Assembly (NCBI GenBank): GCA_963713975.1
Contig: OY970218.1
Location: forward strand, 1,152,001 to 1,216,000
Source: an uncultured Chloroflexia bacterium
GTDB lineage: Bacteria; Chloroflexota; Limnocylindria; Limnocylindrales; CSP1-4
DNA: 64,000 bases
Direction: 5' to 3'
The stretch's first letter is position 1; each line of letters starts with the position of its first letter. Below the pieces are notes generated by a model, which was not told where the DNA came from, made no database searches, and was given only the letters and a program-made list of their open reading frames with translations. Positions 21,495 through 54,363 of the stretch are shown here, piece by piece. Made by a program: the position numbers and the translations under genes.

Positions 21495-21683
21495 CTCGTC
21501 GGCGCGCGACTCACGCCGGAGGCGTACTCGCTGGGCCTCGCGCTCGCGCTGCCCGAGCGCGTTCAGCCGGCGCAGGAGTGGGTACTGGCGCGCCCGACAG
21601 GTGTTGGATGCTCGATTTCAACCTACACCATCCCGATCGAGGGCCGCGAGGAGTGGCTGGCTGCGGCGAGGCGACTGGCGTGA
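21495..21683 (+). pseudogene. Extreme C-terminal remnant of a large serine recombinase, reading through att site A
   Basis: ARLTPEAYSLGLALALPE...LARPTGVG...TYTIPIEGREEWLAAA aligns with the longer remnant at 46111-46643. Confidence 0.6.
21586..21638. repeat. att-like site A (tRNA-Arg 3' end-derived core plus conserved arm)
   Basis: TGGCGCGCCCGACAGGTGTTGGATGCTCGATTTCAACCTACACCATCCCGATC; differs at 2 positions from copies C and D. Confidence 0.85.
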
Positions 21684-21928
21684 AGGACGGATACCTGCGC
21701 GGCTCCTTGCCGGGGACTCGGACGGCCCGCCAGGTTGACGTTCTGGCCGCCTTCGTTGCCCCGGGCGGATCTGTGTCGGAAGCGGCGGAACGTCTCGGCA
21801 TCCGGCCCAGCTCCGCGAAACGGCATCTCGCCGATCTGCGTGCGCGATCGGGTCTCACCACCGAGCAACTGATCTACCGGGGGCGAGCTGAGGGCTGGCT
21901 CGTGGCGCCGAGTCTGGAGCTGAGGTGA
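21680..21928 (+). CDS. Small LuxR-like HTH protein, copy 1
   Basis: TARQVDVLAAFV...GSVSEAAERLGIRPSSAKRHLADLRARSG; GTGA overlap with the recombinase tail; paralog at 46640. Confidence 0.75.
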   Translation: MKDGYLRGSLPGTRTARQVDVLAAFVAPGGSVSEAAERLGIRPSSAKRHLADLRARSGLTTEQLIYRGRAEGWLVAPSLELR

Positions 21929-21993
21929 GGGCGCACAGCCGACAGGTGCGGCGTAGTGCGTCTTAGCATCGGTCATCGAGCGGGAGAATACGT

Positions 21994-22737
21994 CTACGCC
22001 GACCAAGTCCATGGTCGGCCTTTCGAACGGATGTCGGATATCACGGGGTGATCGCGTTTGGCTCCATCGGGTCTGTCTGCTGCCAGTACCTCGTCGTCGA
22101 GAACAGGCCCGATCAGTCCGGCCTGGAGCGCCGTGGCGACGGCTTCCGCGCGATTCCGGGCGCCGAGCTTCGCGTAGCCATGTGCCAGATGCGACTTGAC
22201 GGTGTTCCTCGACACGAAGATCTGGCGGGCGATGTCGTCGGTCTTGAGACCGGCGGCCGCGAGACTCAGGACCTCGAGCTCGCGAGTCGTGAGCGGGTCG
22301 ACCGTGCTGGCATCCGTCTGGCGCGCCCGCTTTCCTGACGCCAGTGCCGCAGCCCGGAGGCGAGCGGCGAGGATCGCGACGAATGTCCCTTCAAGCACAA
22401 ACAAGGCTAATCGCACGAGGTCGGCCGGTTCCGTGAGCCACGGGTGACCGCGAAGCGGCACGAGGAGCGAAGTCCCTATCGCGCACAGGCCGAGAGTGAG
22501 CAACGCGACCCTGAAGCCCAGACCGATCGCGACGACCGAAACCGGGAGCAGCAGCAAGAGGAAGGCGCCGCCGCCGGGCAAGATGTCGGCCGTCTGATCG
22601 ACGCTGATGACCGCCCCGAGCGTCGCCGCGACCGGTAGGCCAAAGCGGAGACGGGGTCTGAACTGGGACGCAACCGCGAGGCTGGCGATCGCTCGTTGGG
22701 CGGCGAGCTCCACCGCGCGGCCATCAATGACGGACAC
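21994..22737 (-). CDS. Membrane-anchored LuxR-family regulator (DUF4118-like TM domain plus HTH); start uncertain
   Basis: 4 TM segments, then PLTTRELEVLSLAAAGLKTDDIARQIFVSRNTVKSHL. Confidence 0.82.
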   Translation of the reverse strand: MSVIDGRAVELAAQRAIASLAVASQFRPRLRFGLPVAATLGAVISVDQTADILPGGGAFLLLLLPVSVVAIGLGFRVALLTLGLCAIGTSLLVPLRGHPWLTEPADLVRLALFVLEGTFVAILAARLRAAALASGKRARQTDASTVDPLTTRELEVLSLAAAGLKTDDIARQIFVSRNTVKSHLAHGYAKLGARNRAEAVATALQAGLIGPVLDDEVLAADRPDGAKRDHPVISDIRSKGRPWTWSA

Positions 22738-23070
22738 CCAGTAAAGGGTAGGTAGGTTCGCGCGGACTGTCCACCGATGACGACCCGGCAGCACTGAAAC
22801 CAGGGGCCCGGCCAACCCGAATCACCCGAACGGGGGATGACGACCGACCGTGCCGGACGCGACGATTTCGGTTTCCCGACGCCGCGTTTCTGTAGGTGGG
22901 CCTTCGTTTCTACGGCTGGCCCCGGCGGTGACCCCACACGACCGAGGTGCCCATGGACCCCACCAACACGCCACCTGCGAACCGAGTCCTGAGGACCGCG
23001 CCCGCTCGCCAAGCCGACACCGACAGGCGCTGCGCTTCATGAACCTGTCTACCCCAACAGGGCCCCGAGC

Positions 23071-23985
23071 ATGAACGTCGTCGAAGTCACCGAGCTGACC
23101 AAGCAGTACGGCAGTCACGTGGCCGTCGATGGCGTGTCCTTCGCTGTCGAGGAGGGCGAGATCTTCGGCATTCTCGGCCCGAACGGCGCCGGCAAGACGA
23201 CGACCGTCGAGACGATCGCCGGTTTGCGCACGCCCGACGGCGGGACGATCCGAGTCCTCGGGCTTGACCCGCAGCAGGATCGTGACCGGCTGCGGCCGCT
23301 GGTCGGCGTCCAGCTCCAGGAGAGCGAGCTGCCCGAACGGATGACGACGGGCGAAGCGGTCCGGCTGTTCGCCTCGTTCTATGCCAATCCGGAGGGTCCG
23401 ACAGCCCTGATCGGCGATCTGGGGCTGACCCAGAAACGCGACACGCAGTATCGCCATCTGTCCGGAGGTCAGAAGCAGCGCCTCTCGATCGCTCTCGCAC
23501 TCGTCGGCAAACCCAAGGTCGCCATCCTTGACGAGCTGACGACAGGCCTCGACCCGCAAGCTCGCCGCGCGACATGGCAGGTCATCGAGTCGATCCGCGA
23601 ACGGGGCGTCACCGTGCTGCTCGTCACCCACTTCATGGAGGAGGCGGAGCGCCTCGCAGACCGCGTCGCCATCGTCGACGGTGGCCGGATCGTCGCGATC
23701 GACACGCCTGCCGGGATCATCTCGCGTCTCGACGCCGAGCAGACGCTTCGCTTCCGCCCGTCGGCGCCGATCGAGGATCAGCTGCTCACTGACCTCCCAG
23801 AGGTGAACGACGTCAACCGGGCGGGCCCCGTCGTCGTCGTCACTGGCATCGGGAATCTCATCCACGCCGTCACCTCGGTTCTGGCCCAACAGGGGGTCGT
23901 GGCCAACGACCTCCGGGTTGAACAGGCCAACCTCGACGATGCGTACCTCGCTCTGACGGCCCGCACCGCAAAGGAGCTGTCATGA
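23071..23985 (+). CDS. ABC transporter ATP-binding protein
   Basis: GPNGAGKTT, LSGGQ, ILDELTTG. Confidence 0.95.
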   Translation: MNVVEVTELTKQYGSHVAVDGVSFAVEEGEIFGILGPNGAGKTTTVETIAGLRTPDGGTIRVLGLDPQQDRDRLRPLVGVQLQESELPERMTTGEAVRLFASFYANPEGPTALIGDLGLTQKRDTQYRHLSGGQKQRLSIALALVGKPKVAILDELTTGLDPQARRATWQVIESIRERGVTVLLVTHFMEEAERLADRVAIVDGGRIVAIDTPAGIISRLDAEQTLRFRPSAPIEDQLLTDLPEVNDVNRAGPVVVVTGIGNLIHAVTSVLAQQGVVANDLRVEQANLDDAYLALTARTAKELS

Positions 23986-24716
23986 ACGGGATGCGTGCCC
24001 TGATCGTGGCCGAGACGAGGCTCCTCCTGCGCGACCCGATTAGCTGGATCCTGTCGATCTTCCTGCCAACGGCGATCCTGCTGGTCTTCGGTTTCATCCT
24101 TGCGCCCCACCGCCCGGACCCGGCGTTCGGGGGCCTGCGGTTCATCGACGTGTTCGCCCCGTCGCTGATCGTGATCGCCATGGCGATCCTCGCCCTCCAG
24201 ATCCTGCCGGTACGCCTGACGAACTACCGTGAGCGAGGCATCCTGCGTCGCTTCTCGACAACGCCGGTCCACCCCAGGCGGCTGTTGTTCGCCCAGCTTG
24301 TCGTCTACTCGGTGACGGCGACCCTCGGCGTGGTCCTGCTGGTCGTCGTCGGCAACCTCGTGTTCGACATCCAGATCCCGGCCAATCCCATCGGCTTCGT
24401 GGTCGCATTCGGCCTCGGGATGGCGGGGCTCCTCGCGATCGGGCTGCTGCTCGCCGCAGTCGCGCCGTCGGCCGGCGTCGCCACGGCCGTCGGGGTCCCG
24501 GCGTTCATGGTCGTGCTGCTGCTGGGCGGCGTCTACGTCCCACGGACGATCCTGCCTGACCTGCTCATCCGGATCGGCGAGTTCACGCCGCCGGGCGTCC
24601 AGGGGCTGCAGGACGCATGGACGGGTGCCACGCCGCAGCTCCTGCCGCTGGCCGTGCTGGCTGCCCTCGCCGTCGCCTTCGGGCTGATTGCCAGCCGCGC
24701 GTTCCGCTGGGAGTGA
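23982..24716 (+). CDS. ABC-2 type permease
   Basis: 6 TM segments, YRERGILRRFSTTP, C-terminal FRWE. Confidence 0.9.
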   Translation: MNGMRALIVAETRLLLRDPISWILSIFLPTAILLVFGFILAPHRPDPAFGGLRFIDVFAPSLIVIAMAILALQILPVRLTNYRERGILRRFSTTPVHPRRLLFAQLVVYSVTATLGVVLLVVVGNLVFDIQIPANPIGFVVAFGLGMAGLLAIGLLLAAVAPSAGVATAVGVPAFMVVLLLGGVYVPRTILPDLLIRIGEFTPPGVQGLQDAWTGATPQLLPLAVLAALAVAFGLIASRAFRWE

Positions 24717-24870
24717 CTGCCCGCATCGGACCGAATGGTCGCGGGCCGAGCGCCACGCTCTGGCGAGACCGAATCGCCGTTGCGTTCCCGGCTCAGGGAC
24801 ACCCTTACACCGTACAGACGCAGGAGTCCGAGATCGCTCGGGCCGACCAGCAAGAAGCAAGGAGAGGCCT

Positions 24871-25884
24871 ATGACCGCCAGGGTGACAGACCAGATCACG
24901 ATGAAGGCAATCGTGCAGGACAGGTACGGCTCGGCCGATGTCCTGCAGCTGCGCGACATCGACAAGCCCGGGTTCGGCGACGACGAGGTCCTCGTCCGCG
25001 TTCGCGCGGCCGGCGTCCATGCCGGCGACTGGCACCTCATGGCTGGGCTGCCGTACCTCGTCCGCATGGGGTTCGGGCTACGCGCGCCCAAGCAAACTGT
25101 CCGGGGCACCGATGTCGCAGGGACGGTCGAGGCGGTCGGCAAGAACGTGACCCGGTTCCAGCCCGGTGATGCCGTCTTCGGCATCGGCGCCGGCGCGTTC
25201 GCCGAATTCACGATCGCTCGAGAGGACAAGCTCGCGCTCATGCCCGCCAACCTCAGCTTCGATGCGGCCGCGACGGTGCCCACCTCCGGGTCGACGGCGC
25301 TGCAGGGTCTTCGCGACGTGGGAAAGCTGCAGGCGGGCCAGAAGGCACTGATCATCGGCGCGGCCGGAGGCGTGGGGTCGTTCGCCGTGCAGATCGCCAA
25401 GGCTCTCGGAGCCCACGTCACCGGCGTCTGCAGCACGACGAAGGTAGACCTGGTCCGATCGATCGGCGCGGATGAGGTCATCGACTACACCCGAGAGGAT
25501 TTCGCTGAGGGCGGGCAGCGCTTCGACCTCATCTTCGATACCGCCGGAGGCCGTTCCCTCTCCCAGCTGCGGCGCGCCCTGGCGCCAAAGGGGACGCTCG
25601 TGATCGTGGGAGCCGAAGGAGGCGACCGGTGGATCGGCGGCATCGATCGCCAGCTCCGGGCCAGTGTGCTGTCGCCGTTCGTCGGCCAGAAGCTGGGCAC
25701 GTTCATGTCGAAGGAGAAGAACGAGGACCTGCACTCCCTGAAGGCCTTGATCGAGTCGGGCAAGGTCACTCCGGTTATCGACCGGACCTACCCGCTGGAC
25801 GAGGTTCCCGACGCGATCCGCTACCTGCACGAGGGACATGCCCGGGGCAAGATCGTGATCGGCGTTGACCGTGCGACCGCCTGA
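24871..25884 (+). CDS. NAD(P)-dependent MDR-family oxidoreductase, paralog 1
   Basis: MKAIVQDRYG, GTDVAGTVEAVG, GAAGGVG, VIDRTYPL, GHARGKIVI; RBS GGAGAGG. Confidence 0.92.
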   Translation: MTARVTDQITMKAIVQDRYGSADVLQLRDIDKPGFGDDEVLVRVRAAGVHAGDWHLMAGLPYLVRMGFGLRAPKQTVRGTDVAGTVEAVGKNVTRFQPGDAVFGIGAGAFAEFTIAREDKLALMPANLSFDAAATVPTSGSTALQGLRDVGKLQAGQKALIIGAAGGVGSFAVQIAKALGAHVTGVCSTTKVDLVRSIGADEVIDYTREDFAEGGQRFDLIFDTAGGRSLSQLRRALAPKGTLVIVGAEGGDRWIGGIDRQLRASVLSPFVGQKLGTFMSKEKNEDLHSLKALIESGKVTPVIDRTYPLDEVPDAIRYLHEGHARGKIVIGVDRATA

Positions 25885-25950
25885 CGAGGTGGATGCCGTG
25901 ACCCTTCGCCCGGTCGGTGCGCCAGCGAAGAACTCAGGGAGGGTTGACCC

Positions 25951-26112
25951 GTGCACAACAAGCGATTGAGCCAGGGGGCGTGCGTCGCCCTCGGTGCCGG
26001 GATCGGCGCCACCATCGGGATCGCCATCGGCAACGTCGGCGCTGGCATCGGCGTGGGTGTCGCCATCGGTGCTGCCCTCGCAACCAGGGTGTCGGGCGGT
26101 GAGGCGAGGTGA
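25951..26112 (+). CDS. 53-aa glycine-zipper membrane peptide (below the ORF-track cutoff)
   Basis: GGAGGG RBS, GTG start, GACVALGAGIGATIGIAIGNVGAGIGVGVAIGAAL; GTGA overlap with the next gene. Confidence 0.7.
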   Translation: MHNKRLSQGACVALGAGIGATIGIAIGNVGAGIGVGVAIGAALATRVSGGEAR

Positions 26113-27082
26113 AGGCGATCCGCCGAGACAGGTACGGCCCGCCCGACATCCTGGAACTCAACGAAGTCGAGAAGCCCGTCCCGAAGGACGACGAGGTCCT
26201 GGTCCGTATCCGGGCGTCATCCCTGAACCAGGCTGACCTCGATTACCTGCTGGGCAAGCCCTTCCTCACGCGCATGGGCACCGGGCTCCGCACGCCGAGG
26301 AACCGCGGCCTGGGCTTGGACGCGGCCGGGCAGGTCGAGGCCGTTGGCCCCGACGTGACGGCGTTTCAGCTGGGCGACGACGTGTTCGGAGACCTGACCG
26401 CGTTCGGCTACGGTGCCTTCGCCGAGTACGCGTGCGCTCCGGAGGACGCCTGGGCGCGGATGCCCGCGGGCCTGACCTTCGAGGAAGCGGCGACCATTCC
26501 CCAGGCGGCCATCCTGGCCCTGCAGGGCCTCAAGCGAGGGAGCGGCTCGGGTCGGGAACGAGGGTGCTGATCAACGGTGCGTCAGGCAACGTGGGCCCGT
26601 TCGCCGTCCAGATCGCGAAGGCCTTCTGCGCCCACGTGACCGGCGCCTGCAGCACCGCCAAGGTGGACATGGTGCGGGGGCTCGGCGCCGACGAGGTCAT
26701 CGACTACACCCGCGAGGACTACACCCGGCGGGGACAACGGTACGACTGGATCGTCGATGTCGCGGGCAACCGTTCGATCCTCGAGTGCCGGCGGGCGCTG
26801 AAGCCTGGGGGCGTCTACGTCATTGTCGGCGGTCCCACGAGCCGCATCCTGGGCGCCCTGCTGCTCGGTCCGCTGATCTCGCTGGCCGGGAGCAGGACGA
26901 TGGGTCTCATGCTGGGGTGGAAGCTCTTCAAGAAGGAAGACGTGGTCCTTCTGAAACAGCTCATCGGGGCTGGGAAGATCCGGCCGATGATCGATCGGAG
27001 GTATCCACTGACGGACGTTGCTGCAGCGCTTCGGTACCTGCATGGCGGACACGCTCGGGGGAAGGTCGTCATCACCGTGTGA
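26109..27082 (+). pseudogene. MDR-family oxidoreductase paralog 2, frameshifted near 26530-26560
   Basis: N-half in ORF 26109-26570 up to LALQGL; C-half (VLINGASGNVG...GHARGKVVITV) in another frame. Confidence 0.85.
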
Positions 27083-27190
27083 GGTCCCGCGCACGGCCCA
27101 GACCGAGGCGTTGTCGCGCAACGGATCGTCCGCAAGGCGTAGCACCACGGGCGAATAGACCGCAGCGCCCGCCCCGTCGACGATTCGGGG

Positions 27191-27634
27191 GTGAAGCTGT
27201 GCACGGTCTGCGGTGTCATCACCAGCCGCGCGGGTAGTCGCTGCACCGAGCACGCTCGCCAATCCAACCGCAGCAGGCACAACGCCATGTACAGCACGCG
27301 GGCCTGGCAACGAATCAGCGCCCGCGTGCTTCGTGCCTGGCGTGGTGAGCACGGCAACTGGTGCCCCGGCTACCAGCGCCCCGCCCACCCCGCGCGTGAC
27401 CTGACCGTCGATCACGTCGTATCACTCTCGGTTGGCGGTGCGCCGTTCGACATCGGCAACACCGCCGTGCTCTGCCGCTCGTGCAACTCGACCAAGGGTG
27501 CGACGACCGAGGGGGGCGGGGTAGCCCATGGGGGGACGCGGCTGCTCCCTGACCGCGCCCGGCGAGTGTGTGCACGCGGCCGAGTTTCGTGCTTAATGGG
27601 GGGTTTTCGCCAGGGGGCGATGCGCGAGCTCTGA
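27191..27634 (+). CDS. Phage-type HNH endonuclease
   Basis: N-terminal CxxC...C..H, YSTRAWQR, TVDHVV...GG...NTAVLCRSCNSTKG. Confidence 0.85.
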   Translation: MKLCTVCGVITSRAGSRCTEHARQSNRSRHNAMYSTRAWQRISARVLRAWRGEHGNWCPGYQRPAHPARDLTVDHVVSLSVGGAPFDIGNTAVLCRSCNSTKGATTEGGGVAHGGTRLLPDRARRVCARGRVSCLMGGFRQGAMREL

Positions 27635-27647
27635 CGCCCTCGACACA

Positions 27648-27842
27648 ATGGCCGCGGCCGCGACGATGACCCTCCGCGCGAGCCTCGCACCGCCGCGCCA
27701 CTGCCCGGCCTGCGGTGCCGGGCTCCCGTATCTCGGCGGGCGGGGCAGGCCGCGCCGGTGGTGCGAGGCCCACCATCCCCGTCCCGCGCGTCTTCGCCCA
27801 CGGACGGCACTGGACGCCGGCGTGTCTGCCGCCACGGCCTGA
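27648..27842 (+). CDS. Small zinc-ribbon protein or remnant
   Basis: CPACG...GRGRPRRWC pattern, common in small mobile-element DNA-binding proteins. Confidence 0.5.
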   Translation: MAAAATMTLRASLAPPRHCPACGAGLPYLGGRGRPRRWCEAHHPRPARLRPRTALDAGVSAATA

Positions 27843-28285
27843 GGCGCCGCACCGAGACCGGCCCCGCGACCTCGCCGATCTTCGCCCGTGCGGGCCTACG
27901 TTGGTCGAAGGGCGGCTCTGAGCCTGCGGGAGCCACCAGTGCCACCGGCCCCGGGCCTGGCGTAGCGCGAGGGCGACCCGTCCGTCGATCGCCCTCGTCC
28001 CGTTGGCGGTGATGGTCGGCGGGCCCCGGTTGGCGGTGTAGGGCCCGCCCGCCGCCGACGGCTCGGCGCCGATGCGCTGGCGGGCAGGCCGTCTGCTGGG
28101 CAAGGCCCGTTCGATGGCCGTCTCCGTGCAGACCCTGTCCCGCGCCCCGAGCAAACACCGCAGACGCCGCTGGGCTGACTCCGTTGGAGGTCGGAGGCAA
28201 CGGGCCTACGGTCGAGCCAGCTCGAGCGACGGTGCACTGAGCCCGTCCCCCGGGAGCACGGATCGACCACCACGAGGAGCGTCCC

Positions 28286-29323
28286 ATGAAAGCGATCGTC
28301 CAGGACCACTACGGCTCGGAGGACGTCCTCCAGCTCCGCGACATCGACCGGCCGGTCATCGGCAACGGCGACGTGCTGGTGCGCGTCCATGCCGCGTCGA
28401 TCCATATCGGCGACCGGCTGATCATGCAGGGGAGCCCCTTCCTGGTCCGCATGGCCACCGGCCTCGGGCGCCCGAAGCAGCCCATTCCGGGCACCGATAT
28501 CGCCGGCACGGTCGAGGCCGTGGGCAACGACGTTACGCGCTTCAAGGTCGGCGACGAGGTCTTCGGCTGGACGTCTGGCGCCTTCGCCGAGTACGCCTCG
28601 GTGCCCGAGGACCACCTGGCGGCCAAGCCGGCACGGCTGAGCTTCGAGGAGGCCGCGGCCGTGGGCGTTTCCGCGACGGTGGCGCTCCAGCTCCTTCGCG
28701 ACGATGGCAAGGTGAAGCCCGGTCAGAAGGTGCTCATCAACGGGGCGTCGGGCGGGGTCGGCACGTACGCCGTCCAGATCGCCAAGGCGTTCGGCGCGGA
28801 GGTCACGGGCGTGACCAGCACTCGCAACGCGGAGATAGTCAGGTCAATCGGCGCCGACCACGTCGTTGACTACACCAGGGAGGACTTCACGAAGGGGACC
28901 GAGCGGTACGACTTCATCCTCGACAACGTCGCCAACCACTCCCTGGCCGAGACGCGTCGCGCCCTCTCCCCGACGGGAACCCTGCTTCCGAATGGTGGCG
29001 GCCACACGGGTGGCGGCGTGGGCCGGCTGATCCGCGCCACGATCGCCTCGATGGTCTTCCGCGGCCAGGGCCGCCCATCCGTGAAGTTCCAGAACGCCGC
29101 GGACTTGGCTGCCCTCGTGGGGCTCGTCGAGACCGGCAAGATCACGCCGGTCATCGACCGCACCTATCCGCTGGCCGAGACCGCCGCGGCGCTGCGCCAG
29201 GTGGGCACTGGGCATGCACGCGGCACCGTCGTGATCAGCATCGCGGGGCCGGCGGCCGGCACCACGACCTCGGCAGGCACCGTGGGCGCGGCCACACCGC
29301 TTGCCGCGGGCGGTGTGGCATGA
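28286..29323 (+). CDS. MDR-family oxidoreductase, paralog 3
   Basis: MKAIVQDHYG, GTDIAG, NGASGGVG, GHARG; RBS GAGGAG. Confidence 0.92.
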   Translation: MKAIVQDHYGSEDVLQLRDIDRPVIGNGDVLVRVHAASIHIGDRLIMQGSPFLVRMATGLGRPKQPIPGTDIAGTVEAVGNDVTRFKVGDEVFGWTSGAFAEYASVPEDHLAAKPARLSFEEAAAVGVSATVALQLLRDDGKVKPGQKVLINGASGGVGTYAVQIAKAFGAEVTGVTSTRNAEIVRSIGADHVVDYTREDFTKGTERYDFILDNVANHSLAETRRALSPTGTLLPNGGGHTGGGVGRLIRATIASMVFRGQGRPSVKFQNAADLAALVGLVETGKITPVIDRTYPLAETAAALRQVGTGHARGTVVISIAGPAAGTTTSAGTVGAATPLAAGGVA

Positions 29324-30492: not shown

Positions 30493-30499
30493 GGACGAG

Positions 30500-43817: not shown

Positions 43818-43918
43818 GGTGGGCGTGTACGTGAGGTGGAGAGTCATTCGCTTGGCGCACGAGCGGTTACCGTCGAGAGGATGATAGAAGCAATTCGCTC
43901 GTCGCGCAAGCGGTTTCT

Positions 43919-43945
43919 TGGCGCGCCCACAGGTGTCGGGCGCGC
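43919..43945. repeat. att-like site B
   Basis: TGGCGCGCCC-ACA GG TGTCGGGCGCGC (1-bp deletion in the left arm), followed by a diverged tail TGVGRAATMRFVKVPIA. Confidence 0.75.
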
Positions 43946-43992
43946 GGCCACCATGCGTTTCGTCAAGGTCCCGATCGCGCCCCGAGGCCTGT

Positions 43993-44601
43993 ATGGGCGC
44001 GCTCGAACTGTTCCTGCACGCTCCGGATCCGGGCGTGCCCGAGCTTGTGCGCGCCGCTATCGTCCACGTCCAGTTCGAGACGATCCACCCGTTCCTCGAT
44101 GGGAACGGACGTGTCGGGCGGCTCCTGATCCCGGTCATGCTCGCGCACGCTGGCATCCTGCGGCAGCCGCTGCTCTATCTGAGCCTGTTCTTCCGCGAGC
44201 ACCGGGACGAGTACTACCGGCTCCTCGGGCAGGTCAGGACCGACGGTGACTGGGAGGCCTGGGTTGACTTCTTCCTCGAGGGCGTGGAGCAGACCGCGGG
44301 TGGTGCCGTTGCGACGGCGAACCGGTTGCTGGAGCTGATGCGCAGGGATCAGGTCAGGGTCGCGGGCCTGCAGCGGTCGGCTGGCGCGGCGTCCCGTGTG
44401 TTCTCGGTTCTCTGCGAGCGGCCGATCGCGTCGGTGGGCGATGCGGCCTCGCGTCTCGGCGTCTCCCTGCCGACTGCGACGCGCGGCATCGGGGCCCTCG
44501 CGGGCCTCGGCATTGTCAGCGAGATCACCGGGCGTCAGCGCAGCCGCCTCTACGCGTACGACGAGTACCTCTCGATCCTGACGCGGGAGCCGGCGGCCTG
44601 A
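43993..44601 (+). pseudogene. Fic-family protein, N-terminally truncated
   Basis: HPFLDGNGRVGR and C-terminal HTH (EITGRQRSRLYAY); the usual N-terminal half is absent and replaced by site B. Confidence 0.78.
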
Positions 44602-44775: not shown

Positions 44776-44830
44776 TTTGGCGCGCCCGACAGGTGTTGGA
44801 CGCGCGATTTCAACCTACACCATCCCGATC
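44776..44830. repeat. att-like site C
   Basis: 55 bp identical to 46544-46598. Confidence 0.9.
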
Positions 44831-45077
44831 TGGGGCCGCGACGAGTGGCTCGCCGCGGCGGGCCTGAGTGCGTGCGGCCAGGACCCGGAGCTAACGAAGT
44901 CAGCCCATGCATCCTCCTGCCGCTCCCGGGCGCGATCCTTCGCGCTCCTGGGGCTCGAGGCCTCGGCCTTCTGGCGGGGCGTGACGTGAGGACGGTTAAG
45001 GCATGAACGCAGCGGACCCGACTCTGCGTTTCTGCGCGTGCTTCGCGCTCCTGCGAGTCGCGTATGCTCTGACCCCC

Positions 45078-46055
45078 ATGGCCGACTTCGTCACTTCTCT
45101 TCCCAAGGCCGAGCTGCACATTCACGTCGAGGGGACGCTCGAACCCGAGGTGATGTTCGCCCTTGCGGATCGCAACGGGATCACGCTTCCCTTTGCCACG
45201 GTCGAGGCGGTGCGGGCCGCCTACGAGTTCACCGACCTGCAGTCGTTTCTCGACCTGGTCTACCAGGGCGCTGCGGTGTTGCACACCGTCGAGGATTACG
45301 ACGGCCTGATGTGGGCGTACCTGCAGCGGGCGCACGCCGATGGAGTGCGTCGCGCCGAGATCTTCTTCGACCCCCAGGTCCACACCGAGCGGGGCATCGG
45401 GTTTGAGGTATTCATGAATGGCTTCGCCCGAGCAAGGCAACGCGCCGCGGCCGAGCTCGGGATGACCACGGCTCTGATCATGTGCTTTCTCCGTCACCTC
45501 CCTGAGTCGGCGGCGCTGCGCACGCTCGAGGCCGCAGGGCCGTACCTCGATCAGATCGTTGCGGTGGGCCTGGACTCGTCAGAGGTCGGACATCCACCCT
45601 CCAAGTTCGAGCGCGTGTTTGCCCGGGCGCGGGAAGCGGGGTTGCGGGCGGTGGCGCACGCCGGGGAAGAGGCGCCACCGCAGTACGTGTGGGAGGCGCT
45701 CGACCTACTAGGGGCGGAGCGCATCGACCACGGTGTCCGTGCCGAGAGCGACGCGGCACTGGTGTCCCGGCTGGCTGCCGACCGCATCCCGTTGACGATG
45801 TGCCCGCTCTCCAACGTGCGGCTGCGGGTCATCGATCGGATCCAGGACCACAACCTCAAACGGCTGCTCGATCGCGGGGTGGTGGTGACGGTCAACTCCG
45901 ACGACCCTGCGTATTTCGGCGGCTACATCGGGGACAACTACCGGGCGGCCCAGGCCGCTCTCGGGTTGAGCGACGCCGAGATTCGAACCCTCGCCCGGAA
46001 CTCGATCGGGGCGAGCTTCGCCGACTCAGCGGAGAAGGCGCGCCTGCTGGCGTAA
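45078..46055 (+). CDS. add: Adenine/adenosine deaminase
   Basis: LPKAELHIHVEG, FFDPQ, AHAGEE, RIDHG, CPLSN, NSDDP. Confidence 0.93.
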   Translation: MADFVTSLPKAELHIHVEGTLEPEVMFALADRNGITLPFATVEAVRAAYEFTDLQSFLDLVYQGAAVLHTVEDYDGLMWAYLQRAHADGVRRAEIFFDPQVHTERGIGFEVFMNGFARARQRAAAELGMTTALIMCFLRHLPESAALRTLEAAGPYLDQIVAVGLDSSEVGHPPSKFERVFARAREAGLRAVAHAGEEAPPQYVWEALDLLGAERIDHGVRAESDAALVSRLAADRIPLTMCPLSNVRLRVIDRIQDHNLKRLLDRGVVVTVNSDDPAYFGGYIGDNYRAAQAALGLSDAEIRTLARNSIGASFADSAEKARLLA

Positions 46056-46110: not shown

Positions 46111-46643
46111 CTCACGCAGGTCGAGGGAATCGAGCTCGACGACGCGACCATCGGCGCCGTCGTCGCCAGCCTCGGGTCCGGTCCCCGGCCGGTGGCGATC
46201 GACCAGGCGCGGATCGATCGCCAGATCCGCGAGCTCGCCCTGGAGCACGCCGCGGCCGCCTCCAGGACGCCGTCTACCTCGAGCGGCTCCACGAGCTCCG
46301 GGGGGCCAGGGAGAACTTCGAGCGAACGAGCGCCGACGGGATCTCGCCCGAGCGGGCCGTGGCCCGGCTGCGCGAATTGTCAGCGACGTGGCGCGCAGCC
46401 GAGGTTCCTGCGGAGAAGGCCGACCTGCTCCACGCCATCTACGACCGAATCACCGTCGCAGGGAGGAGGAACGTGTCCGTCAGGCTCACTCCGTCGGCAC
46501 ACACCCACGGAATCGCGCTGGCTCTGCCGGAAAAAGGTCGCAATTTGGCGCGCCCGACAGGTGTTGGACGCGCGATTTCAACCTACACCATCCCGATCGA
46601 CGGCCGCGATGAGTGGCTGGCAGCGGCAGGGCTGCGGGCATGA
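46111..46643 (+). pseudogene. C-terminal remnant of a large serine recombinase (coiled-coil region; frameshift near 46255)
   Basis: ARIDRQIRELALEHA/GRLQDAVYLERLHELR...W...EKADLLHAIYDRITV is typical of LSR C-termini; catalytic domain absent; reads through site D. Confidence 0.7.
46544..46598. repeat. att-like site D
   Basis: 55 bp identical to 44776-44830; lies within the recombinase reading frame (LARPTGVG). Confidence 0.9.
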
Positions 46644-46942
46644 GGGACGGCTACCAGCGCGGCGAGCTGACGCGAACTCGAACCGCCCGTCAGGTGGAGG
46701 TGCTCGCCGCATTCGTGGCGGCCGGAGGCTCCGTGCTGGCGGCAGCACAGGTGGTCGGGATTCGGCCGAGTACCGCCAAGCGACACCTCGCCGACCTGCG
46801 TGCCCGGTCGGGCCTCACGACCCAGCAGCTGATCTACAGCGGTCGAGCTGAGGGCTGGCTCGTTGTTCCCAGCCTGGAGCCGACATGTGGGACGGGGCGG
46901 TGGCCAGCCGGGCCGGTGCTCCATTCGCTGTCGGACGTCTGA
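46640..46942 (+). CDS. Small LuxR-like HTH protein, copy 2
   Basis: Close paralog of 21680-21928; ATGA overlap with the recombinase tail. Confidence 0.75.
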   Translation: MRDGYQRGELTRTRTARQVEVLAAFVAAGGSVLAAAQVVGIRPSTAKRHLADLRARSGLTTQQLIYSGRAEGWLVVPSLEPTCGTGRWPAGPVLHSLSDV

Positions 46943-49861: not shown

Positions 49862-49954
49862 GCCCCGAGACTGACCACCCGTCGGGCCGCGCATATCGTC
49901 TGAATTGATGATTGGCGGTCGGTTGACCTGCTCGTCGCGTACCCTGCATGGATC

Positions 49955-52255
49955 GTGGCAAGGCCCAGGCGCCGATCCGGCAACCTTCCAGCCGAGGCGA
50001 CCAGCTTTGTTGGGCGTCGGCGTGAGCTCGCCGAGATTCGCAAGAAGCTGACGACCGCCCGAGTCATTAGCCTCGTAGGCCCCGGAGGCGTCGGCAAGAC
50101 GCGGCTGGCGATCCGCGCGGCAGACAGCCTGGGGCGTGGGTTCGCGGACGGTCCCTGGCTGGTCGAGCTTGCCGACCTGCACGATCCGGCCCTCGTGACC
50201 AACGCCGTGGTCGCCGCGCTGGACCTGCGAGATCAGACTGCAGCGGAGCCGCTCGACGTCCTCGCCACGTATCTCCAGGACAAGCAGGTGCTGCTTGTCG
50301 TCGACAACTGTGAACACCTTCTCGACGCGACCGCGCAGCTTGTGGCCCTCATCGTCCGAACGTCGACGAACGTGCGGGTGCTCACGACCAGCCGTGAGCC
50401 GCTCCAGATTTCGGGCGAGTACGTGGTTCCTGTGCCCCCGCTGGAGCTACCAGAACCCACGACGACGGCGTCGCTCGCAGAGCTGCGCCAGAACGAAGCG
50501 GTGATGCTCTTCACGGAGCGCGCTGCGGCGGCATCCGGGACGTTCGAGTTGACCGAGGCCAATCGCGCGGCGGTCGTCCAGTTGTGCCGCCGTCTGGACG
50601 GTCTGCCCCTGGCGATCGAGCTCGCGGCGGTGAGAACGAGAGCCCTGACGGTCGAGGAGATCGTCGCTCGCTTGACCGACCGATTTGCGCTGCTCACCGG
50701 CGGGCGACGGGAAGCGCTGCCGCGGCACCAAACCCTGCAAGCCACGATCGACTGGAGTCACGATCTCCTGCCGCCCGAGGAGCAAACCCTGCTGCGGCGC
50801 CTCTGTATCTTCGGTGGGTCGTTCACCGCCGAAGACGCGGGGTCGGTGTGCTCGTTCGACGAGCGATCCACCGCGGGGACCGCGGACATGCTGGCCTCGC
50901 TGATGGAGAAGTCGTTGATCGTCCGAGAGGACTTCGCGCAGCGTGCCGGCTATCGCCTGCACGAGACGATGCGTGAATACGCGCGTGTCAAGCTGCAAGA
51001 GGCCGATGAGTCGGACCTCGTCGAGGAACGGTGCCTCGAGCATTACCGAACCAGGTGCCTTGGGTCGGCGGATCAAGCTCGATATGAGCTTCTCGAGTGG
51101 CTCGAGTGGGTCGACCTGGAGATCGACAATCTCCGGGCGGTGCTGCAACGCTGCATCGCGCGCGGCGACCTCGCCCATGGGTTGGATATCGCTGCCTCGC
51201 TCGGATACTTCTGGATCACTCGCGGGACCACGGAAAGTGTGCGCTGGCTCGACCAACTCCTGCCAGCCGGCGATGCGTCTCCGGAGACGGAAGTGCGGGC
51301 GTGTCTCGTGCGCGGGCGGCTGAGCCTCCTGCGGGCCGAGTCGGCCGATGCTCGGCGCTGGCTGGCTCGCGCGGTGACAATTGCTCGCCGTGCTGGGCTC
51401 CGGTCTGAACTCGCCCAATCGCTGTCTCTCGCTGCCATGGCCGCGAACGCCGGCGGCGACGCAGCCGCCGCCGGCCGCCTCATCGACGAGGCGGCAACAG
51501 TGACGAAGGAGCTCGACGACTACCAGGCCACGATCGAGCTGTTGCAGGCTCAGGCCGTCCATGCGGTCTTTTCGGGGGCTATGCAGGAAGCCAAGGACTT
51601 CGCCACCGAAGGTGTGCGCTTGAGCCAAGCGGCTGGTGACGTCTACTACCTCGAATCTTTCCGGCGCAACCTCGCGAGTGTCGCGATGTTCGCCGGCGAC
51701 CTCGACACTGCAAAGGTGCAGACGGTCCTCGCGTTACGCCTGGCCCGGGACCCGGACAACCGAGTCGCCATGTATTACGGGTTGTCGGCTCTGGGATGGC
51801 ATGCGGCCAACTCTCGACAGCCGCGACTTGGGGCACGGCTACTGGGTGCGGCCGCGGCGATCGGCATCGGTGCCGGCGCCGACATCAGCGGGCCGTTCGA
51901 GCCATTTCTGCGTCAGGCCACGGAGTCGGCTATCTCGGTGCTGGGGAAGGCCAAGTTCGACGCCGAGTTCGGCGCTGGTAGAAGCATGAGCCGTGAGACG
52001 GCGTTGCGGCTGGCGCTCGGCGAATCCGCCGACGTCGCGGTCGATGGGACAGACGACATCGAGAGCGGACCGTTGGCGAAGCGGGAGGTCGAGGTCGCGC
52101 GCTTGATCGCGCAAGGCATGAGCAACAAGGAGATCGGAGCTCGGCTGTTCATCTCGCAGCCGACCGTGGCGACCCATGTTCGGAACATTATGAACAAGCT
52201 CGGGTACAACTCGAGGGCACAGATCGCCGGCTGGGTCGCGTCGGGAAGTCGGTAA
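49955..52255 (+). CDS. STAND-type ATPase/TPR/LuxR transcriptional regulator
   Basis: GNLP..TSFVGR, GPGGVGKT, LVVDNCEH, LDGLPLAIELAA, C-terminal LuxR HTH. Confidence 0.92.
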   Translation: MARPRRRSGNLPAEATSFVGRRRELAEIRKKLTTARVISLVGPGGVGKTRLAIRAADSLGRGFADGPWLVELADLHDPALVTNAVVAALDLRDQTAAEPLDVLATYLQDKQVLLVVDNCEHLLDATAQLVALIVRTSTNVRVLTTSREPLQISGEYVVPVPPLELPEPTTTASLAELRQNEAVMLFTERAAAASGTFELTEANRAAVVQLCRRLDGLPLAIELAAVRTRALTVEEIVARLTDRFALLTGGRREALPRHQTLQATIDWSHDLLPPEEQTLLRRLCIFGGSFTAEDAGSVCSFDERSTAGTADMLASLMEKSLIVREDFAQRAGYRLHETMREYARVKLQEADESDLVEERCLEHYRTRCLGSADQARYELLEWLEWVDLEIDNLRAVLQRCIARGDLAHGLDIAASLGYFWITRGTTESVRWLDQLLPAGDASPETEVRACLVRGRLSLLRAESADARRWLARAVTIARRAGLRSELAQSLSLAAMAANAGGDAAAAGRLIDEAATVTKELDDYQATIELLQAQAVHAVFSGAMQEAKDFATEGVRLSQAAGDVYYLESFRRNLASVAMFAGDLDTAKVQTVLALRLARDPDNRVAMYYGLSALGWHAANSRQPRLGARLLGAAAAIGIGAGADISGPFEPFLRQATESAISVLGKAKFDAEFGAGRSMSRETALRLALGESADVAVDGTDDIESGPLAKREVEVARLIAQGMSNKEIGARLFISQPTVATHVRNIMNKLGYNSRAQIAGWVASGSR

Positions 52256-52288
52256 GCTGCCAAGCAGGCGTGGTCGTGCACCGTGCCC

Positions 52289-53635
52289 TCAGCGGACACC
52301 CTTCACGGGCAGGATGGCGAACGCGCCGATGATCGCGCAGAGCCCGGCGGCTGCATAGAGCACACCGTAGCTGCCGCTGCCGATGGCCAGGATTGCGGGC
52401 GCGATCGCTGGTGCGATGGCGAACGGGACCGCGCTCGCCATGTTGAACACGCCGAGATCCTTGGCGACATCGTCGTTGTCCGGCAGCACGTCGAGCACAA
52501 GCGCGAGGTCCACAGCGAAGTACATGCCGAAGCCGAGGCCGCTGATGGCCATGCCGACCAGGAAACCGTTGAAGTCGCTGGCGACGGCGATCACGAACAG
52601 CGCGATGCCGTACACGACTGACGCGGCGAAGACGAAGATCTTTCGCCGGCCGGTCCGGTCAGTGAGCTTGCCGCCGATGAGGGAAGCGGCGATGAGGAAC
52701 ACGGACTGGGTTAGCGTGCCGAGGAAGATCTGTTGGGGCACGTCGGCCTCGGCGCTGCCGATCTTGTCGAGCAGGTAGTAGGCCAGGTACGTGACCAGGA
52801 AGGCATAGGCCAGAACGAATAGGAAGCGACTGATGAACGCCCAGGCGAAGTCCGGGCTCTTCCGCGGATCGACGTAGAACGACCTGGTGAATTCCCGGAG
52901 CGACCAGTCTGGCCTGTCCTCTCTGGCAAGCCGGCGATCGTTCAGCGTCACGGCAAAGAGCAGGATGAAGAACCCGCCGATCGCACTCGGGACCAGGAGC
53001 ATCGCGAGTTCGTTACCCGTGAAGAGTCCTACCAGAAATGTGCCGCTGACCGCCGCTATCGGCAGACAGACGCCGACGAGACCGGAGACCATGCCGCGTT
53101 GAACGGTCGGGACTTGATCCGGGATCACCGCGACCTGGGCAGCGAGGAGTGCATTGAAGGACAGCTGGGCGAGGCACCACCCGACGAGGACGACCGGGAT
53201 GGTCGGTGCCAGCCCGACGATGAGGATGCCGATGGAACCGCCCGCCAAGCCGAGGAACAGCCACGGCCGCCGCATGCCCAGCCGCGACGTTGTGCGGTCG
53301 CTCATCCTGCCGAAGAATGGATTGGCGAAGATGGCCAAGAGTGCGCCGACGCCGGCGACAAGCGCCAGGCTGTTCGGCGCCTGGTCGATCCCCACGAGCG
53401 AGTTCACCTTCAATGGCAAGGTCACGAGCAGCGGCGCCAGGAACACGAGGTTCGTTCCGATGAACGCTAGCGTGTACAGCGAGATGAAAACCCAGCCAAC
53501 CCGGTGTGCCGCCGGCGACGCTGGCGCGAGCGCGACCTCGGCTGCGGTTCGGTACGGCATCGCGTCCAGCCCGGCGGTGGGAGGCACATGGGGCTGGCTT
53601 GGCCCGCTTGGGAGCGGACCGGAAGGCTTCGGCAT
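52289..53635 (-). CDS. MFS transporter (start uncertain)
   Basis: 12 TM segments; GRMSDRTTSRLGMRRP and GKLTDRTGRRK motif A. Confidence 0.92.
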   Translation of the reverse strand: MPKPSGPLPSGPSQPHVPPTAGLDAMPYRTAAEVALAPASPAAHRVGWVFISLYTLAFIGTNLVFLAPLLVTLPLKVNSLVGIDQAPNSLALVAGVGALLAIFANPFFGRMSDRTTSRLGMRRPWLFLGLAGGSIGILIVGLAPTIPVVLVGWCLAQLSFNALLAAQVAVIPDQVPTVQRGMVSGLVGVCLPIAAVSGTFLVGLFTGNELAMLLVPSAIGGFFILLFAVTLNDRRLAREDRPDWSLREFTRSFYVDPRKSPDFAWAFISRFLFVLAYAFLVTYLAYYLLDKIGSAEADVPQQIFLGTLTQSVFLIAASLIGGKLTDRTGRRKIFVFAASVVYGIALFVIAVASDFNGFLVGMAISGLGFGMYFAVDLALVLDVLPDNDDVAKDLGVFNMASAVPFAIAPAIAPAILAIGSGSYGVLYAAAGLCAIIGAFAILPVKGVR

Positions 53636-53900
53636 TGCGCTCCCTTCAGGGGTCGGCGGATACGCAGTGTGACAGCAAGGCGGTCCGTGACCGGGCGCAG
53701 TCGTCCTCGGGCTCATCACCCGCAGCCAAGTGAGCCCGGTGTGAGGGACGGGTCGCGTAAGCCGAGCTGACGGCGCGTCGTCGCTGGGCTCTCAAGTCCG
53801 CCTGCGAGCAGCCGGCGCAGATTTCTGGCCCGATCCATTCCTATTGCCCCGCATATGGCGCATCATCGAACGCCCCTGCGGAGCAGCCGAACTGACAACG

Positions 53901-54230
53901 CTGGACAACGCACCCCCGCTGATCGAGACGAAGTTCTACGTCCCCAGGCGCCGAGGCGTGGTCGCACGTCCGAGACTGCACGAGCGTCTGTCCCGCGGGG
54001 TCGAGTCGAAGCTGTCGTTGGTCTCCGCCCCGGCAGGCTTCGGCAAGACGACGCTCCTAGCCGAATGGCTCGCCTCCGCTCCGAGCGGCCGAAGGTCGGT
54101 GGCGTGGCTCTCGCTCGACCCAGGCGACAACGAGCCCACCTCCTTCTGGGCTTACGTGATCGCGGCGCTGCAGGTGGCGGCGCCGGGGGTCGGCGCGAAT
54201 TCTCTCCCGCTGCTGCGGGACCCGCCAAGG
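53901..54230 (+). pseudogene. N-terminal fragment of a MalT-like LuxR regulator
   Basis: LIETKFYVP...ARPRL...SAPAGFGKTTLL...AWLSLDPGDNEP..FW; stops about 100 bp before site E. Confidence 0.82.
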
Positions 54231-54281
54231 GCTACTGGCGCAACCTACGACGAGACCCCGGCCGATGGCCGGGGTCTCCAG

Positions 54282-54338
54282 CGACTGACTGACTCACATG
54301 TCCCGACTCATGTGACTCATATGTCGCGACTCATGACA
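54282..54338. repeat. Short GACTCA-containing direct repeats abutting site E
   Basis: GACTCACATGTC, GACTCATGT, GACTCATATGTC and GACTCATGAC within about 50 bp. Confidence 0.75.
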
Positions 54339-54363
54339 TGGCGCGCCCGACAGGAGTCAAACC
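54339..54363 (-). repeat. att-like site E: tRNA-Arg 3' fragment
   Basis: Minus strand GGTTTGACTCCTGTCGGGCGCGCCA gives T-loop, acceptor stem 3' strand and CCA; compare tRNA-Arg(CCG) ...GGTTCGAATCCTGTCGGGCGCGCCA (from memory). Confidence 0.8.

Follow-up and report, generated by a model that had tools for sequence, protein, structure and literature searches.

Why does one short sequence occur five times, always in the same orientation, in a single region of a bacterial chromosome? This question is raised by a stretch of 64,000 nucleotides (the window) from an uncultured Chloroflexia bacterium (Limnocylindria, CSP1-4; assembly GCA_963713975.1), comprising bases 1152001-1216000 of one 3.62-Mb contig (OY970218.1) with 70.8% G+C. 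An earlier note, made from the letters of the window, had read the five repeats as attachment (att) sites derived from a tRNA-Arg gene, and the segments between them as elements integrated one after the other by related serine integrases. Here, we follow this proposal through the complete contig and 70 genomes of the genus, the own genome included. Repeated insertion by serine integrases at one tRNA-Arg gene is largely supported. We regard the five sites, named A to E from left to right, as joints of a decayed tandem stack, in which elements encoding a large serine recombinase (LSR), represented by the intact integrase Int1, would have been inserted serially in the tRNA-Arg(CCG) gene at its 3' end. 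To this reading, we assign a probability of about 85%.

The 16-nt core, TGGCGCGCCCGACAGG, is present exactly and on the + strand at window positions 21586 (A), 44778 (C), 46546 (D) and 54339 (E), and, with one base missing, at 43919 (B), which confirms all positions noted before as well as the deletion in B. With up to two mismatches allowed, 0.35 chance matches are expected, and none of 100 shuffles gave four. The core is not scattered over the genome, since only six exact copies are present, namely A, C, D and E together with one at 1304879 and one on the opposite strand at 2262752; five of the six are co-oriented and lie inside 131 kb. Its reverse complement, CCTGTCGGGCGCGCCA, constitutes precisely the final 16 nt of tRNA-Arg(CCG), which was located by ARAGORN at c[1304879-1304954] and is the single gene for this tRNA in the genome. 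As had been predicted, the intact gene is found on the minus strand past the right edge of the window, at a distance of 88,879 bp (window-equivalent positions 152879-152954); five copies of its 3' end, all in the same orientation, follow at 98.5-131 kb on its 3' side. ARAGORN and Rfam detected no tRNA and no Rfam family in the window itself. The sites are spaced by 22,333 bp (A-B), 859 bp (B-C), 1,768 bp (C-D) and 7,793 bp (D-E), in agreement with the unit sizes proposed earlier, except that the last unit, given as over 9.6 kb, extends over 98,540 bp from E to the tRNA gene. As a control, the final 16 nt of each of the 51 tRNAs were counted genome-wide. Co-oriented multi-copy arrays of such 3' ends exist solely for Arg-CCG (four extra copies), Arg-TCG (five) and Pro-CGG (three, plus three elsewhere), with a few of the remaining tRNAs having one or two extra copies; the three array tRNAs are those which Int1-family integrases abut across the genus.

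The serine recombinase that was expected on the + strand, converging on the tRNA, is Int1, the final 65 nt of which overlap the tRNA gene. In the frame of Int1, the core encodes the residues LARPTG, antisense to the final 16 nt of the tRNA. The protein matches the Resolvase family PF00239 with 38.8 bits (cut-off 23.3; E 1.3e-9) and carries the catalytic motif WVRESTEGQ of the R-x-S-x-x-Q type, with R26 and S28 being invariant in 12 aligned homologues. These homologues also keep a C-x-C...H...C pattern, with invariant C292 and C294 and nearly invariant H314 and C320, and their joint profile matches residues 76-316 of the A118 integrase structure 4kis, i.e., the recombinase/zinc-ribbon region (E 1.8e-11), and, in the PDB profile search, also the PhiC31, SPbeta SprA and TP901-1 integrases. 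An AlphaFold model of Int1 (mean pLDDT 74.9) displays the domain order expected, with strands at residues 290-330, helices onward to 450 and a disordered stretch of 28 residues at the end. Over its full length, the model was aligned by Foldseek to integrase-DNA complexes of the SPbeta type (6e-16), PhiC31 (7e-13) and Bxb1 (5e-12); the TM-scores of 0.2-0.3 are low, as would be expected of a flexible multi-domain protein, and sequence identity to the best full-length integrase structures (Foldseek ranks 1-10) amounts to 13-16%. The best NCBIfam match, CcrB, is weak (E 3.8e-5). Judged by catalytic domain, family profile and fold, Int1 is a large serine recombinase. Two further PF00239 genes are encoded in the genome, one within the Arg-TCG array and one converging on tRNA-Arg(CCT); the latter paralogue passes the Pfam Recombinase threshold with 29.4 bits. 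Among the 69 open reading frames (ORFs) scanned between 17.5 and 63 kb of the window, there is no recombinase gene.

The flanks of the cores connect the array to this enzyme. At A, left arm and core are 98.1% identical over 106 bp to the end of Int1 at genome 1304789-1304894, and translate to Int1 residues 461-497 with 35 of 37 identical (tblastn). At D, the left flank corresponds to Int1 residues 339-497 at 44% identity, with one frame break, and ends in ...ALALPEKGRN-LARPTG. As both left flanks translate to C-terminal residues of Int1, A and D bear integrase stubs. On the right, we distinguish two types of arm, referred to as P1' for the type belonging to Int1 and P2' for a second type. A, C and D have in common the type-2 flank TGTTGGA(C/T)GC(G/T)CGATTTCAACC, which, in the integrase frame, encodes an alternative tail of the form VGRAISTYTIPI(E/D)GR(D/E)EWLAAA..A followed by a stop codon. 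C and D do not differ in their P' arms, the modules at A and D remain 78% alike across 349 bp, and the type-2 arm of B is truncated by a deletion. Downstream of the type-2 tails, genes of ~82-100 codons with weak matches to LuxR/LysR-type helix-turn-helix (HTH) families are located. The GTG start of the one at A overlaps the tail stop codon (GTGA); its paralogues are 78.8% identical at D and 82.5% at genome 1800451-1800690, with the variation falling at third codon positions.

Site E is built differently and, as a correction to the earlier account, is not of the same kind as A-D: its right arm is an Int1 half-site and its left flank the end of an insertion sequence (IS). The right flank, AGTCAAACCGCCGGGTACCCACTC, differs from those of A-D and recurs in four other genomes (5/70 including the own), two of which carry Int1 orthologues of 95% identity. 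Across these sites, ~130 bp of the right flank are conserved, all five left flanks differ, and the tail frame, VKP..THSG.KSIPI.GA.(D/E)WEV.... and a stop codon, is open in four of the five. The bases formerly taken for a retained T-loop are better read as an attP P' arm together with integrase-tail codons. A 72-nt tRNA-like drawing of the minus strand right of the core, made by eye, was likewise rejected as a pseudo-tRNA; neither ARAGORN nor Rfam calls it, its acceptor-like 5' bases recur in none of the four other P1' sites, and the stretch itself forms a conserved, open frame for the integrase tail, leaving coincidence or, at most, distant ancestry.

On the left of E, the window retains just the final 118 bp of an IS481-family IS. 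This end is 98.5% identical over 131 bp to genome 1737390-1737520 and ~80% identical to sequences ending exactly at the CCA of tRNA-Arg(TCG) and tRNA-Val(TAC), which are the right ends of 1.3-kb insertion sequences. The 400-aa transposase of a full copy (L007:10670-11872) matches NCBIfam IS481 with 248.3 bits (cut-off 224; E 1.1e-73), and the idea that the flank is the end of a second integrase family was abandoned in favour of this match. An IS481 end also abuts the intact tRNA-Arg(CCG) gene in two relatives (G008 and G012), and we propose this arrangement as the precursor state for E; elsewhere, the tRNA gene is flanked by a short integrase stub (G017) or by unrelated sequence (G002). We further propose that E is the attL of a 98.5-kb Int1 element.

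The symmetry of the half-sites was assessed over 30 nt on each side of the central GG, with left arms compared with the reverse complements of right arms. For A, C/D and B, the right arm agrees with the mirrored arm of the tRNA end at 9, 11 and 12, respectively, of the 14 inner positions, which bears out the inverted repeats around GG described before for A-D. At the outer positions, the right arm of E agrees with the mirrored Int1 arm (GAGTGGGTAC + TGGCGCGCCCGACA) at 11/16 in exact register, a value that random genomic 16-mers reach with P = 5.8e-4 and that no other arm pair in the window approaches beyond 7/16. Since E combines an IS481 end on the left with a right arm that mirrors the arm of Int1, the element spanning E to the tRNA is probably the youngest of the stack. 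In two relatives (G004 and G044), the arms of the Int1 orthologues compared with P1' sites of their own genomes give 10/16 each. For the second type, a site with a nearly whole integrase on its left (G032) shows P2 and P2' mirrored at 21/30 positions, 13/14 of the inner ones included. In silico, P1/P1' and P2/P2' are imperfect inverted half-sites around GG. Against this background, A consists of a type-1 left arm joined to a type-2 right arm, and a site in G012 has the opposite composition, i.e., a type-2-like left arm (23/30 versus the G032 right arm) and a type-1 right arm (11/30 versus its own). Stacking predicts a hybrid joint such as A, and joints of both orders fit the insertion of one element beside a resident one of the other type, which would leave them behind.

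A search of the genus for type-2 sites with up to three mismatches yielded 14 sites in 11 of the 70 genomes; B is outside these 14. In 11 of them, the tail can be read through to a common stop codon, the exceptions being C (no stop codon), one site with a mutated stop and one frameshifted ahead of the contig end. Among ten ungapped P2' tails, variable columns are distributed 9/7/17 over codon positions 1/2/3. Left flanks, classified by eye for 13 of the P2' sites, comprise six integrase C-termini, one IS481 end and six unrelated sequences; with A included, an integrase end is present on the left in 7/14. Tails of both types have the motif IPIxGxx(D/E)W in common, which can also be read in the sequence of an Arg-TCG-type site at genome 1730920.

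From this sequence anatomy, from the family and fold of the integrase and from the recurrence among relatives, all directly observed, we infer the crossover point, the order of events and any present-day activity. The LSR family would carry its attP inside its own 3' coding end, at the LARPTG codons, and crossover would occur at the GG with which the 3' strand of the T-stem begins. Upon integration, the tRNA gene would receive a new 3' end from the element and its old 3' end would be moved to the far joint, so that the newest insertion is expected nearest to the tRNA gene, in a stack that has since decayed. At the same time, the last 25-31 residues of the integrase, bearing the IPIxGxx(D/E)W tail, would be exchanged for 15 residues antisense to the tRNA. 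P1 is the arm of Int1 and P2 that of a second clade, whose element would start with the LuxR-like HTH gene translationally coupled to the tail. With these assignments, A may be read as P1-GG-P2' (hybrid joint), B as a truncated P2' joint, C as flank-GG-P2', D as integrase stub-GG-P2', E as IS481 end-GG-P1' (attL) and the tRNA gene as P1-GG-B' (attR).

Relatives of Int1 (E <= 1e-20) were detected in 46 of the 70 genomes, many of them as fragments or with stop codons. At the 30 best integrase loci, a tRNA gene lies at the integrase 3' end in 21 cases (Arg-CCG 15, Arg-TCG 1, Pro-CGG 5); several of the other nine are partial or cut by a contig end, and two (L038 and L039) are near-full-length with flank and have no tRNA. 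The exact core is present in 60/70 genomes, with at least three copies in 30/70, and a reversed-pattern control gave 0 in all 70. The copies often share one contig and one orientation, as do the five in G052:C1, six in G053:C10 and five in G058:C1. The earlier expectation that breaks between relatives fall at the sites holds at species level: similarity stops exactly at the left edge of the core, the flanks there differ between species, and the right flanks are conserved.

Several findings weigh against a serially built stack or limit its reconstruction. Int1 stays below the cut-off of the Pfam Recombinase family PF07508 (18.6 versus 21.1 bits) and has no match to Zn_ribbon_recom; tblastn found no integrase stub left of B or C; and the two arms of D are mirrored in register at only 1/16 outer positions, wherefore D is not a clean attP (an apparent 8/12 mirror at a 2-nt offset was judged too weak for use). 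For the type-1 tail, the counts of variable columns at codon positions 1/2/3 (7/4/6, from four sequences) are uninformative. In 30 relatives searched with 4 kb from the left of A and 3.2 kb from the right of the tRNA, no empty site was found; the left flank of A is not syntenic in these genomes, the right flank with the mod genes beside the tRNA is kept only in G013 and G004, and the two flanks never occur together. The Int1 orthologues of G013 (95%) and G074 (92%; a genome that is 50% complete) are without a P1' site within three mismatches. Public sequencing runs, in the best of which at most 9% of the sampled words were present, as short contigs, revealed no excision or circle joint; contigs from these runs over window 50000-58000 have no joint at a core, and one peat-metagenome contig begins to match exactly at 54339, with a different left flank. 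Finally, canonical LSRs pair attP only with attB and are not known to insert beside the arm of a resident element, as stacking needs. For stacking to occur, the outer left half of attB must be unimportant, or the joints arise otherwise.

The location of attP within the reading frame invites a further, tentative idea, which we consider possible at best: the arrangement may serve as a built-in sensor of the integration state, with two tail isoforms that would be unlike in directionality or stability. When excised or in a tandem joint, the element would produce an integrase with the conserved IPIxGxx(D/E)W tail and, in the type-2 case, would co-translate the LuxR-type HTH protein from one common message; once integrated, it would yield the tail-swapped enzyme, with the HTH gene stranded at the far end. 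Integration-dependent immunity is known from some mycobacteriophages with tyrosine integrases, and a sensor of this kind, if real, would be its serine-integrase counterpart.

Among the alternatives to serial insertion, a doubtful one is that the inner units are cis-mobilizable elements without an integrase, having usable att joints and being moved in trans by Int1 or incoming relatives, alone or with neighbours. Exact cores at A, C, D and E and well-preserved P' arms at C and D are what such elements would have, and the accessible text on the Dehalococcoides ssrA islands reads their integrase-less, repeat-bounded units likewise (PMC3146451). Against this, the Int1 arm motif GTGGGTAC is mirrored at E only and not at A-D, so that Int1 should not recognise P2' arms; the genome lacks an intact type-2 integrase, with none of its three PF00239 matches being of type 2 and beside these sites; and B is truncated, with a deletion.

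It is clearly less likely that the array arose mainly via homologous recombination or segmental duplication of modules, or that it arrived ready-made in one large element. A 106-bp, 98% identical repeat does bracket the whole 131 kb, the likeness of the A and D modules would fit copying, and tandem copies through homologous recombination are considered for integrase plasmids in what is accessible of PMC12884075. Units, however, have no cargo in common, joints combine different arm types exactly at GG, and the pattern recurs with unrelated flanks in many genomes.

Classical tyrosine-integrase islands in a tRNA gene, with the serine recombinase as a passenger, are contradicted by the data and very improbable. 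According to the accessible text of the Islander paper (PMC4383910), most tRNA-linked islands use tyrosine integrases, and the 106-bp direct repeat resembles a tyrosine-type identity block. Yet there is no tyrosine recombinase between genome positions 1.17 and 1.30 Mb; the three PF00589 matches lie at 2.27, 2.87 and 2.93 Mb, the nearest ~0.96 Mb from the array, and Islander looks for such an enzyme within the island. Moreover, the 90 bp that precede the core code for integrase, a serine recombinase overlaps the tRNA in 21 of the 30 loci, and the arms form palindromes about a centre of 2 bp. Chance or a generic GC-rich hairpin or REP-type repeat, for which the base composition and the abundance of fuzzy core matches might be quoted, is refuted by the shuffles, the six exact copies in 3.6 Mb and the reversed-pattern control.

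The features on which the proposed serial insertion at tRNA-Arg(CCG) is based are compiled in Table 1, together with the contents of the shorter units.

Table 1. Features of the array and of its tRNA-proximal integrase gene; positions refer to the window unless stated otherwise
Feature	Position	Strand	Basis or remark
Site A, left arm: final 37 codons of an Int1-type integrase, reading into the core	21496..21601	+	blast comparison
Site A, right arm: type-2 P' half-site TGTTGGATGCTCGATTTCAACC, also coding the alternative integrase tail VGCSISTYTIPIEGREEWLAAARRLA (then stop)	21602..21683	+	
LuxR/GerE-like HTH gene after A, 82 aa	21680..21928	+	weak Pfam HTH match (HTH_1 E 8.7e-6)
5'-truncated Fic-domain gene filling B-C (0.86 kb)	43918..44601	+	Pfam Fic, profile positions 38-93 only
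Site B: core with one base deleted and 13-14 nt of type-2 P' arm, TGTCGGGCGCGCG	43919..43947	+	
Site C: exact core, type-2 P' arm, decayed tail	44778..44877	+	no stop codon; HTH gene lost
Adenosine deaminase, sole intact cargo of C-D (1.77 kb)	45003..46055	+	Pfam A_deaminase E 1.6e-97
Decayed 3' part of a second serine integrase gene, reading into core D	46111..46565	+	tblastn
Site D: exact core (46546-46561), type-2 P' arm and tail VGRAISTYTIPIDGRDEWLAAAGLRA (then stop) to 46643	46546..46942	+	
LuxR-like HTH gene at D	46640-46942	+	ATGA overlap with the tail stop codon
Truncated right end of an IS481-family IS	54221..54338	+	final transposase codons, hairpin, terminal repeat; stops exactly at the core
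Site E: exact core (54339-54354), type-1 P' arm AGTCAAACCGCCGG-GTACCCACTC, tail VKPPGTHSGFKSIPIAGAHDWEVGTMRSA (then stop) in the integrase frame	54339..54446	+	
Left 9.6 kb of the probably youngest element	54447..64000	+	methylase, HerA-like ATPase, excisionase-HTH; continues past the window
Int1, intact large serine recombinase, 511 aa	genome 1303408-1304943; window-equivalent 151408-152943; L005:7408-8943	+	Pfam Resolvase

The contents of the units are unrelated to each other; an intact integrase is present only in the tRNA-proximal unit, and integrase stubs are found at A and D. The segment A-B comprises, besides its HTH gene, a DUF4118-GerE regulator, two ABC systems, five zinc-dehydrogenase paralogues, an HNH nuclease, a histidine kinase with two response regulators, oxidoreductases and a Fic gene. 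Truncated genes had been said to abut the sites. This is correct for the Fic-domain gene that starts at B, which aligns with residues 269-453 of the 468-aa Fic protein encoded on the minus strand at 42750-44156 and lacks the first ~230-270 codons; a truncated MalT-like gene abutting a site could not be confirmed, and the STAND/LuxR gene at 49955-52255 touches no site. A hairpin stands between the truncated Fic gene and site C, immediately ahead of the latter. Next to the adenosine deaminase gene, C-D contains the integrase stub. Neither B-C nor C-D is an element; both are stubs left by decayed ones. In D-E, the HTH gene is accompanied by genes for DUF2938 and DUF4386 proteins, a STAND-LuxR regulator and a Major Facilitator Superfamily (MFS) transporter, and by the IS stub.

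The tRNA-proximal segment is by far the richest. Its defence-type genes comprise a DNA methylase, a HerA-like ATPase and a Type ISP-like restriction-modification protein; those of conjugation type encode a type IV secretion system (T4SS) pilin, TadE, CpaB and CpaF/VirB11-type proteins, a TraG/VirB4-like ATPase, an M23/SLT hydrolase and Replic_Relax. An excisionase-type HTH protein, three cation-efflux genes, an IS21 element, antitoxin-domain genes, a sugar-metabolism block and Int1 complete the unit. G+C is ~0.70-0.74 left of 20 kb and 0.62-0.72 beyond. A fuzzy search (up to three errors) for additional degenerate cores between E and the tRNA returned noise typical of a GC-rich genome and was disregarded.

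Some observations concern the cargo and the outer border of the array. The dehydrogenase paralogues of A-B (window 24688-32666) are of the zinc-type alcohol dehydrogenase/quinone oxidoreductase kind, 64-74% identical at the DNA level, and interleaved with the HNH nuclease ORF and a MacB-type ABC system. From window 54566-64000 to genome 1218655, the Int1 element has what looks like a defence block, comprising the methylase, a 388-aa protein of unknown type, the HerA-like DUF87 ATPase, a 400-aa excisionase-HTH protein and the 1063-aa Type ISP-like restriction-modification protein. Left of A, ~180 bp at window 20696-20876 recur in many genomes of the genus (69-83% identity, up to five copies per genome), with a second copy in the own genome at 1802068-1802251; the ORF over this repeat has no match to a Pfam family. 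Because the repeat lies ~1.5-9 kb or less from a serine-integrase gene or stub in several relatives, it may be part of what remains of the oldest element. Immediately outside the window on its left, at genome 1150805-1151272, a tandem repeat of 102-bp period (~4.6 copies, 97-99% identical) sits within a 696-aa ORF.

Comparable arrangements exist elsewhere in the same genome. A second array extends over 1668029-1757006 (L006, L007), where the 16-nt end of tRNA-Arg(TCG) is found at 1668029, 1729737, 1730920, 1735657 and 1737510 and a 15-nt copy at 1755598, with long palindromic arms, GTGTTGTTC...GAACAACAC, and a serine recombinase gene at 1746641; a PIEGR-type tail and a module resembling the HTH gene are present at the 1730920 site. 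In a third array, at 816549-834282, three repeats of the tRNA-Pro(CGG) 3' end lie no more than 18 kb from the gene, and a Fic paralogue adjoins the outermost copy. Three opposite-strand copies of the Pro(CGG) end are located at 1300577 (L005:4577, inside the Int1 element near its right end), 1731268 and 1806165. At 2958611-2967434 (L009), a 530-aa serine recombinase with Resolvase, Recombinase and zinc-ribbon Pfam matches converges on tRNA-Arg(CCT), the end of which has one direct repeat at a distance of 8.7 kb; the arrangement resembles a lone, compact element of broadly the same kind. The sixth exact core (2262752-2262767, minus strand; L010:7752-7767) has a left flank, GCGGGGTGGTT, that equals the left flank of a P1' site in G050, and a right flank of low G+C that is neither P1' nor P2'; it lies ~8 kb from a tRNA-Gly(TCC) island with a tyrosine integrase and a Replic_Relax (relaxase-like) gene.

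The ends of tRNA genes are also occupied by other elements. The IS481-family IS adjoins several att-like sites, and the 1.3-kb copies at 1755598-1756930 (L007) and 3178496-3179828 (L008) have their right ends exactly at the CCA of tRNA-Arg(TCG) and tRNA-Val(TAC), respectively. Both full copies, the one at tRNA-Val included, are preceded by TGGCGCGCCCGGAGG; either the IS strongly prefers tRNA or att ends, or it carries TGGCGCGCCCGGAGG along. On the other side of the tRNA-Arg(CCG) gene, G009:C4 and G005:C26 contain several partial copies of its 5' half with the upstream flank, which suggests that a different element family uses this tRNA from the opposite side.

Taken as proposed, the data describe a genus of uncultured soil and freshwater Chloroflexota that uses serine integrases at three to four tRNA genes, building large variable islands. 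For genome engineering, it offers a natural panel of related LSRs, whose attP and attB would be readable from genomes for Arg-CCG, Arg-TCG, Pro-CGG and Arg-CCT. Judging from the hybrid joints, one half of attB may be subject to less strict requirements, and attP in the ORF together with the alternative tail is a candidate way for integrases to sense their own integration.

How does this compare with known systems? Characterised large serine integrases mostly target protein genes. With those of A118/LI (4kis), PhiC31, Bxb1 and SPbeta (SprA), the Int1 family has in common the domain order, the fold and imperfect palindromes around a central dinucleotide, which is non-palindromic in the att sites of characterised serine integrases. 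In the open-access literature searched, we found neither a description of attP within the coding end of a serine integrase nor a relevant account of Limnocylindria integrases. An attP within the integrase gene and a tRNA target are shared with the SSV-type archaeal integrases, which reportedly belong to the tyrosine family and have their gene split on integration; in the system described here, only the final 25-31 codons would be exchanged and the enzyme would stay whole.

In its accessible text, the Islander paper states that serine integrases are not known to target tRNA genes, and counts only four tandems of three or more among 3919 islands (PMC4383910). Elsewhere, serine recombinases in tRNA genes are called rare, with phiRSM1 (tRNA-Ser) and a group of Mycobacterium AICEs (tRNA-Leu) given as cases in the part of Ghinet et al. 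(2011, PMC3218068) available, and 27 of 937 Prochlorococcus elements (tycheposons and cryptic elements) are listed with a large serine recombinase in the available part of bioRxiv 10.1101/2020.12.28.424599. All of these elements have a serine-family integrase and insert at a tRNA 3' end, as is the case here, and stacking with degenerate remnants is common to the Prochlorococcus elements and our array. In contrast to those rare cases, and compared by description, the family treated here is present in 46/70 genomes of a genus, with arrays at three tRNAs in one genome.

Repeated insertion at a single att site, deletion-driven decay and units without an integrase between the att copies are likewise features of the accretion of integrative conjugative and mobilizable elements (ICE/IME). 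The ICESt1 model, said to go back to Pavlovic et al. in 2004, reportedly involves tandem accretion with tyrosine integrases at a protein-gene target (fda); here, by contrast, serine integrases, a tRNA target and hybrid half-site joints are found.

The closest precedent, likened by description, is given by the Dehalococcoides ssrA islands, which, in the accessible text of McMurdie et al. (2011, PMC3146451), are tandem, bounded by a 20-bp repeat of the tmRNA 3' end, inserted at the T-loop, associated with the CcrB-like serine integrase DsiB and, in many units, without an integrase. Both systems occur in Chloroflexota and combine an LSR beside a small-RNA gene, insertion in the T-loop/T-stem region, a 3'-end direct repeat (20 bp there, 16 here), tandem units within ~100 kb and many units devoid of an integration module. 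They differ in the target, which is tRNA-Arg-CCG here (Arg-TCG and Pro-CGG for relatives) and tmRNA there, and in that neither a second small recombinase (DsiA) nor the six-gene module, as far as these are described for Dehalococcoides, was seen beside Int1; the attP inside the integrase frame with its conserved alternative tail is a further candidate difference. Building gene islands by stacked insertion at one gene is known; what is new is a genus-wide family of tRNA-targeting LSRs with attP in the coding end, a conserved alternative tail and hybrid stacking joints.

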